Shown here: positions 29,016 to 29,454 of the stretch, piece by piece
How the letters are laid out: the number at the start of each line of letters is the position of its first letter
Position numbering within the stretch: position 1 is the stretch's first letter
Assembly: GCA_965645245.1 (NCBI GenBank)
Contig: OZ287086.1
Span: 310,001 to 374,000, forward strand
From: Massalongia carnosa
Lineage: Eukaryota
Direction of reading: 5' to 3'
DNA length: 64,000 bases
Notes under the pieces: model-generated
Seen by the model: only the letters and a program-made list of their open reading frames with translations
The model's database searches: none
What the model was told of the DNA's origin: nothing
Position numbers and translations under genes: made by a program

Positions 29016-29454
29016 AACAGACTTTCTGACTAGTCTACGCGTATACAGATGGAGTAATCAGACTTCAATTAAGCAGAACGCATCAATCGGGAAATTCGGA
29101 ATCCGGAAAAAACCTTATTCCATTTAACAGGCCCGGCCTATTAAATGGAACGGTCGGACCGTGGTTCCGACAGCCCCCTATCTCCACACCACCAAGTGAA
29201 AGTTTCACCATCTGAAGAGAGTTCTTTCATGAGGGTACAAGCGTTGTGGCAAAGAAAGGAACATCACAGTTTGATGACAAAGGAAGGGAAATGTTTTGTC
29301 TATAACTAGATCACATATTCCTATCTCCTCCATTCATTCCAGTGCACATCCTACTCCTGCACCAATCTCAGAAACTTAGATACCTTTCAATCTACAGAAG
29401 TTTACTAGAGACCTCTTCTACATCTTCATCTGACTCTCTTCATCTGACTTCATC

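Follow-up and report, generated by a model that had tools for sequence, protein, structure and literature searches.

In the 64-kb stretch of transposon-rich fungal DNA analyzed here (the window: Massalongia carnosa, assembly GCA_965645245.1, contig OZ287086.1, positions 310,001 to 374,000), retrotransposons of unrelated families carry a common module of approximately 55 nt, in which a (C/T)CGGA word is followed, after a spacer, by a near-perfect palindrome of 11-16 pairs, the tip of which (GCCCGGC) is invariant and whose stem contains one A.C mismatch in each copy. A preliminary description, made from the sequence alone, had reported a palindrome shared by three elements, namely a Copia, a Gypsy and an element with an orphan open reading frame (ORF). 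All three occurrences are real, but the list was incomplete, since a fourth copy with different arms is present at 38237-38263, and the observation belongs to something larger, a multi-family module that includes both a hairpin and an upstream part. As judged from sequence, the module is shown to be a fixed trait of several unrelated families, comprising Copia, a non-chromovirus Gypsy (in two subfamilies) and the orphan element, as well as two chromovirus families and one unplaced repeat. The explanation that we favor, tentatively and at somewhat less than an even chance, is that of a structured cis-module that would be kept by selection and template-switched between families, and whose most likely role would be that of an RNA pairing or packaging signal.

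The core of the observation is the exact identity of 29117-29146 and 60641-60670, which extends over the 30 nt initially claimed and cannot be prolonged by a single base at either end; approximately 4e-9 exact pairs of this kind are expected by chance per 64 kb, and the flanks are otherwise unrelated. The longer Copia hairpin that had been proposed corresponds to a 33-nt palindrome that has the top score (13) among the 18 palindromes of the window, as compared to 4, 6, and 9 palindromes, with best scores of at most 10, in three Markov backgrounds. Direct reading also bears out the 36-nt version at 47261-47296, which has 4 mismatches over 36 positions relative to 60637-60672, and the hosts had been correctly named: a Copia element, a Gypsy pol gene (RVT_1), and a 654-aa ORF that lacks Pfam matches. 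The slippery site indeed sits 110 nt upstream of the Gypsy copy. However, the argument that the orphan and Gypsy copies share a reading frame is weightless, because stop codons interrupt both alternative sense frames of the motif. Unrelated strong palindromes occur in LTR-like repeats at 9272-9303, 27673-27701 and 35125-35153. Elsewhere in the window, an M35 metallopeptidase-like ORF (17153-17761, below the Pfam cut-off) has a partial duplicate 35 kb away, at 52857-53020 (164 nt, 96% identical).

The fourth copy, detected in the palindrome scan, is located in the linker between protease and reverse transcriptase (RT) of a chromovirus; it keeps the GCCCGGC tip, the orientation, and the upstream CCGGA word, but has different arms, and its A.C mismatch lies at +-4, instead of +-6 as in Copia. 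The RT of this chromovirus is only ~20% identical to that of the non-chromovirus Gypsy, and its 3' LTR is interrupted by a DNA transposon. The window contains 11 GCCNGGC sites, and the four that have long arms are precisely the four copies: over the next 10 positions beyond the tip, arm matches number 9 in Copia, 8 in Gypsy, 7 in the orphan, and 9 in the chromovirus, while among 141 simulated GCCNGGC sites none reached 8 and two reached 7. The four hairpins can be aligned without gaps, all are in the sense orientation within LTR elements, and a covariance model identified no additional copy in the window. The upstream part is equally recurrent. A CGG word is located 31-35 nt 5' of the hairpin center in all four copies (31 nt for the Copia CCGGA), and a GG(A/C) word and TCC, 10-11 nt apart, are likewise present in all four. 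The recurrence of two CCGG/CGG words at similar spacing, a pattern defined after the fact, has three matches versus 0.05 expected.

Coordinates of the module copies, of their host elements and of the neighboring frameshift site (positions within the window)
Feature	Coordinates	Strand	Details
Copia hairpin	29118..29150	+	center 29134; longest arms of the copies; palindrome scan
Upstream module part, Copia	29096..29117	+	TCGGA at 29096, CCGGA at 29103
Host Copia, complete	27633..35320	+	RVT_2, gag; gag cluster of 37 members
Chromovirus module	38218..38263	+	CCGGAACAA at 38218, hairpin 38237-38263, center 38250
Host chromovirus Gypsy	36195..41760	+	Chromo domain PF00385 on integrase
Orphan module	47247..47296	+	CCGGC at 47247, hairpin 47270-47294, center 47282
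Orphan LTR element	45156..48112	+	identical 336-nt LTRs, no gag/pol domains
Non-chromovirus Gypsy module	60624..60672	+	CGGA at 60624, hairpin 60646-60670, center 60658
Host non-chromovirus Gypsy	56582..62240	+	primer site to truncation point; cluster of 53
-1 frameshift site, predicted	60524..60571	+	slippery 60524-60530, own downstream hairpin -15.8 kcal/mol

The Copia host has 236-nt LTRs that are ~98% alike, a 5-nt target duplication (GGACA), a primer site at 27869-27880, and a 1.6-kb leader with 72-nt tandem repeats; its 3' UTR contains a Tc1-type insertion. The hairpin, with a single C.A mismatch 6 nt from its center, lies within this non-coding leader, ~300 nt 5' of the gag ATG (29455) and ~1.25 kb past the LTR. 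A comparison of the leader with 341 proteins revealed no homology except at the motif itself and at the start of gag. Other features of the element are worth recording. An array of ~72-nt and ~126-nt tandem repeats (28303-29024) directly precedes the module; a second palindrome, CCGCGCAGCGCGG, occurs both in the leader (28707-28719) and just past the pol stop codon (33697-33709); and ACAG(G/C)CCCCTATCT is found in both LTRs (27815-27831 and 35267-35283) and just past the hairpin (29170-29186), where its similarity to the module core minus three tip letters may be a chance resemblance. In addition, 12 nt located just 3' of the hairpin (29155-29166), once reverse-complemented, agree with the Gypsy/orphan primer site at 11 positions. 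A small non-autonomous Copia-type element (44027-44790 on the minus strand, 36132-36194 and 43957-44026), which has its 3' LTR divided by the inserted chromovirus, employs Copia's primer site; the module is absent from its internal ~640 nt (44027-44666).

The module of the non-chromovirus Gypsy separates protease from RT and is translated in frame with pol, giving the peptide SIPFNRPGLLNQ. A full-length member of the family, P0268, has RT, RNase H, and integrase and lacks a chromodomain; both chromovirus and Ylt1-like groups are known in fungi, as described in part of PMC3248453. From the ORF overlap we infer a -1 frameshift role for the region upstream of the module. The module itself was considered as a frameshift-stimulating structure and rejected, being 110 nt from the slippery site, where a different hairpin is present, and non-coding in Copia. 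The orphan element, whose 654-aa ORF occupies 45651-47615, shares a 19-nt primer-site region identically with the Gypsy (45492-45510 and 56582-56600), which suggests that it is probably the non-autonomous partner of the latter; its LTR found no match to the remnant Gypsy 5' LTR among short self-BLAST hits. The orphan protein has no Pfam or Atlas match and four relatives; it is Ser/Ala/Pro-rich, with basic patches and a KRGRP motif that we take to be AT-hook-like. A solo LTR of the same family is present on the minus strand at ~12874-13214. Within the orphan hairpin, one pair is changed in compensatory fashion (A-T to G-C, at +-8) and one is broken (+-9).

The possibility that the motif is missing from other copies of these families, raised at the outset, is contradicted by both sequencing-run contigs and protein clusters, which point to a family-level trait. 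Four sequencing runs were mapped to 60380-60980, yielding 35 contigs for X3, 241 for X4, one near-identical contig for X7, and none for X6. Summed X3 depth over the motif reached 41,000-58,000 versus ~13,600, with further peaks at the ends of the stretch, and provides no copy number. Loose contig ends coincide with the motif edges and, for the 12 of 18 that were listed, lead into the Copia 3' flank (X3), the orphan flanks (X3 and X4), the diverged Gypsy subfamily B, and one flank foreign to the window, in two variants; this unplaced flank contains the CCGGAACAA of the chromovirus copy. Within protein clusters probably derived from the same assembly as the window, PFNRPGLLNQ is present in all nine proteins that cover the region, among 16 Gypsy proteins listed (from the cluster of 53, plus P0267). 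SDQPGRSE is present in six of seven linker-covering proteins, among 15 chromovirus proteins listed from a cluster of 30; these seven include the window's own, and the one without the peptide stops just before it. Two of three orphan relatives that cover the motif read FDRPGLSNQ, P0334 has one stem change, and the derivative P0329 carries a deletion across the motif.

FNRPGRLNQ is encoded by a second chromovirus family (P0133 and P0243), which shares 56% identity with the first. One of its members is frameshifted and gives LTGP, as expected if the canonical left arm is translated in the +1 frame; this settles which letters make up the left arm, and Copia/Gypsy-type arms are therefore also found in a chromovirus. 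A further non-chromovirus family (P0251) has NRLGL at the equivalent place, which is suggestive. Over the first 96 pol residues, subfamily B of the Gypsy (P0281/P0282) has 17 differences from P0269, as compared to 5 over the 1087 residues that follow; within residues 29-43, where the module lies, it does not differ from subfamily A, and at the DNA level the motif is unchanged amid ~15% nucleotide divergence. Subfamily B is, by its sequence, a recombinant, with a crossover near 60890, away from the hairpin. A form of this subfamily with an orphan-type arm, considered from contig breakpoints, was rejected, since its proteins read LLNQ.

The module is not universal. Among 240 pol homologs listed, many of which stop short of the linker, P0133 alone contains the module peptide, and a short-peptide search of 24 candidates was positive for two proteins, which belong to the Gypsy family of the window; in the P0121/P0244 linker it is absent, at least in frame. 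In a scan of prokaryote genomes that returned four loci, two distant Gypsy loci, L002 and L005, span the linker and contain no hairpin, while L003 and L004 have no bearing on its presence; L002, L005 and L003 are fungal-type Gypsy elements on short contigs of bacterial genome records, and are probably contamination. A pattern scan of viral contigs gave no matches, and queries of these with pol proteins or by alignment found no relatives, while the single JGI metagenome pattern match lies inside a bacterial coding sequence and was judged to be due to chance. A restriction to one fungal lineage is thus weakly indicated, the metagenome and viral collections containing little fungal DNA.

Compensatory stem changes, the search for which had been recommended, are present. 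The chromovirus and Copia stems differ by double changes at +-5, 8, 9, 10, and 12, and the orphan shares the change at +-8; among the four copies of the window, both sides are changed in 5 of 11 pairs and 39 of 44 cells are paired in the sense strand, in a comparison that rests on four sequences that also supplied the structure and in which one sequence contributes five of the six double changes. Only 1 of 500 shuffles reached this score, and slid controls were at most ~46-48% paired. The arms can thus be replaced without loss of the symmetry, the tip, or the single mismatch, and what is conserved is more likely a fold than a binding sequence in double-stranded form. Searches with Rfam covariance models gave no match in the window at gathering score, and the four weak matches near the Copia copy (E 0.45-4) are not centered on the hairpin; a tRNA search was negative for the window. 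Three further candidates were discarded: a protein-level motif (the Copia copy is non-coding, and the orphan changes are non-synonymous), an HDV-like ribozyme (a poor fit on inspection by eye), and pairing of the left arm with the anticodon loop of the primer tRNA (Copia and Gypsy primer sites differ, as does the chromovirus arm).

The initial proposal is supported in part. Exchange of a shared cis module between families and its selective retention are supported by the family-level presence, by the compensatory changes, by the sense orientation of all four window copies within LTR elements, and by the lack of target-site duplications around them; the variant of a dyad protein site loses weight, since the arms can change completely yet stay symmetric. 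Shape selection alone does not account for the arm identity of Copia and Gypsy, since in the chromovirus the same shape is built from different letters, and from exact identity across superfamilies we infer a recent exchange, for which RT template switching at the hairpin would be the simplest route. Hairpins are known to promote such switching (PMC3187697, in part). The step that we hold to be least certain is that the hairpin would serve the pairing or packaging of genomic RNA, by opening to form an extended duplex with another RNA molecule. Families whose arms are the same would then pair, be co-packaged, and recombine, thus allowing the module to spread; a non-autonomous element that keeps the module and its helper's primer site could ride in the particles of the latter, and the chromovirus family with its private arms would have left the cross-pairing group. 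Such a role could account jointly for palindromy, fixed orientation, retention by a non-autonomous partner, and spread.

Predicted extended duplexes are consistent with a cross-compatible group of Copia, Gypsy, and orphan and a private chromovirus form. They lie 12.8 kcal/mol below the monomers for Copia-Gypsy and 11.5 kcal/mol below for both Copia-orphan and Gypsy-orphan, as compared to 0 to -2 kcal/mol for duplexes of the other copies with the chromovirus copy. A predicted homodimer lies 12.8 kcal/mol below two monomers; since any palindrome can form such a duplex and yields favorable duplex energies, these values indicate compatibility and not function. The private arms can be likened to differing dimer-initiation palindromes, which limit co-packaging. 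Several observations argue against pairing or packaging: the loop is small (the sense hairpin has a 3-nt loop and an odd palindrome center, so that only an off-center CCGG could kiss), three copies are located 1.8-4 kb inside their elements, sense folding is not exceptional in two 86-nt contexts (Gypsy z 0.09, orphan z +1.66), the antisense strand folds better, and the module is not universal. The better antisense fold could also stem from a plus-strand G>A bias.

In a bolder form of this proposal, which we consider possible but doubtful, one hairpin would serve as a passport that lets Copia, chromovirus, non-chromovirus Gypsy, and parasite RNAs co-pair and be co-packaged, with families escaping by rewriting their arms. 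If this were true, superfamilies thought to be genetically isolated would trade cis-signals, and each fungal lineage may own such a module. To our knowledge, Copia and Gypsy are treated as separate lineages without sequence exchange; a covarying, family-fixed module across Copia, two deep Gypsy branches, and a non-autonomous partner would represent recent exchange of a probable functional signal. We also know of essentially no mapped packaging or dimerization signals in retrotransposons of filamentous fungi, and the question becomes directly testable with a candidate of 55 nt for which nature supplies both compensatory variants and a compatible/incompatible pair of arms.

The same hairpin could instead be an address label in sense RNA, read by a host protein for export of unspliced RNA, hyphal transport, stability or escape from silencing, and borrowed by unrelated elements since it would be functional anywhere in a transcript. 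We regard this as unlikely, even though free position (leader, pol linker, orphan ORF), fixed orientation, and occurrence in one host lineage are in its favor, and an invariant tip, a kept mismatch and variable arms would suit recognition of shape plus tip. Precedents also exist: the localization signal of the I-factor is part of its coding sequence and is recognized by Egl-BicD, for which stem-loops may vary but their bulges are required (PMC13186709, in part), and export elements are found at varied places (PMC4588558, in part). However, known export elements are far longer, no host mRNA copy is seen in the window, and both the palindromic nature of the arms and the Copia/Gypsy arm identity are left unexplained.

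Antisense folding lends some credit to a hairpin that would function on the minus strand, in first-strand cDNA or antisense RNA, as a pause, strand-transfer, or processing signal, a reading that we nevertheless find improbable. In that strand 43 of 44 cells are paired, two pairs vary on one side only, the mismatches become G-U, and the consensus energy is -16.2 versus -9.35 kcal/mol for the sense strand; all four copies fold better antisense, both as RNA and as DNA, and the mismatch has moved from +-6 to +-4 and is yet still A.C on the sense strand. On the other hand, the independent mismatch events are but two, and plus-strand purine transitions dominate the X3 variants (G>A 15, A>G 12, C>T 6, T>C 5), where G>A mutation alone generates A.C mismatches.

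About equally improbable is a DNA dyad or cruciform that, bound by a host or element protein through CGG contacts, would serve inside the element as an enhancer or to counter silencing. CGG triplets are bound by zinc-cluster proteins of fungi, the recurrence of two CCGG/CGG words at 31-35 nt would be in line with such a site, and its action would be independent of position; against it, the chromovirus arms share with the others only symmetry and not sequence, orientation is fixed in all four copies, and the spacing varies by 4 nt.

Still less probable is a functionless, hitch-hiking palindrome that would stall RT and be template-switched between RNAs, with arm-to-arm copying preserving its symmetry, and that would be tolerated only in permissive spots such as a leader or a linker. 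The least constrained regions are indeed occupied, some elements are devoid of the module, the P0242 deletion begins at the tip, and the Copia arms are extended relative to those of Gypsy. Nevertheless, arm-to-arm copying would erase the mismatch, yet every copy has one A.C; the tip and also the upstream word, which is not palindromic, are retained by families with RTs ~20% identical; and the module of subfamily B has remained constant within diverged DNA. Lastly, a randomly scattered micro-MITE or footprint, as envisaged in the preliminary description, is very improbable: the module is short, palindromic, and found in unrelated hosts, but all four copies lack a flanking direct repeat of at least 5 nt at any boundary tried, are sense-oriented and inside LTR elements, and the module is fixed in whole families, while the target-site duplication, variable orientation, and copies outside elements that characterize MITEs are not seen in the window.

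In the literature accessible without subscription, and apart from the supplements of PMC5445492, no description of such a module was found; the systems that come closest resemble it in part. The GalEa Conserved Hairpin Site (CHS) is, in the portion of PMC5445492 consulted, also a hairpin of fungal LTR elements with a strictly kept mismatch, and has an extended form of 33-62 nt that is common to different families of one species, a feature of sharing that the module displays as well. In contrast, the CHS of one Copia clade comes directly after the 5' LTR, where it takes the place of the primer site, and is composed of 9-nt CHSeq1/CHSeq2 arms with an A/A mismatch (PMC5445492, same portion), whereas the module has other arms, another tip, and an A.C mismatch, is located 1.2-4 kb within elements equipped with primer sites (in Copia, far past both LTR and primer site), and spans Copia, chromovirus, and non-chromovirus Gypsy.

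A self-complementary hairpin that could pair two genomic RNAs also evokes retroviral dimer-initiation signals and the Ty1 kissing loops/PAL. Retroviral dimer-initiation palindromes set the rates of co-packaging and recombination (PMC3187697, in part), pol can contain packaging determinants, as in foamy virus, and distant retroviruses cross-package (PMC5086612, in part). Ty1 and most retroviral signals are nonetheless found at the 5' end (PMC5454406, in part), and as described in parts of these three sources they are 5'-leader, 6-7 nt loop motifs, each belonging to one virus or element. The module displays predicted self-complementarity without an even 6-nt loop palindrome; its loop is of 3 nt with an odd center, its place is variable (in the 5' leader for Copia, elsewhere for the other three copies), and it crosses superfamilies. 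With the I-factor ILS, the MusD MTE, and the MLV PTE it has in common an internal structured RNA, recognized by shape in those systems, at variable position; these are animal systems with known receptors, not palindromic in the sections of PMC13186709 and PMC4588558 consulted, and the MTE and PTE measure 400-1400 nt. Finally, autonomous/non-autonomous LTR pairs are recognized by shared primer site, purine tract, and LTRs, according to part of PMC12542154; the orphan and Gypsy elements have the primer site and the module in common, while shared LTRs were not found, and the module, unlike the features of such pairs, is also present in elements that use another primer.
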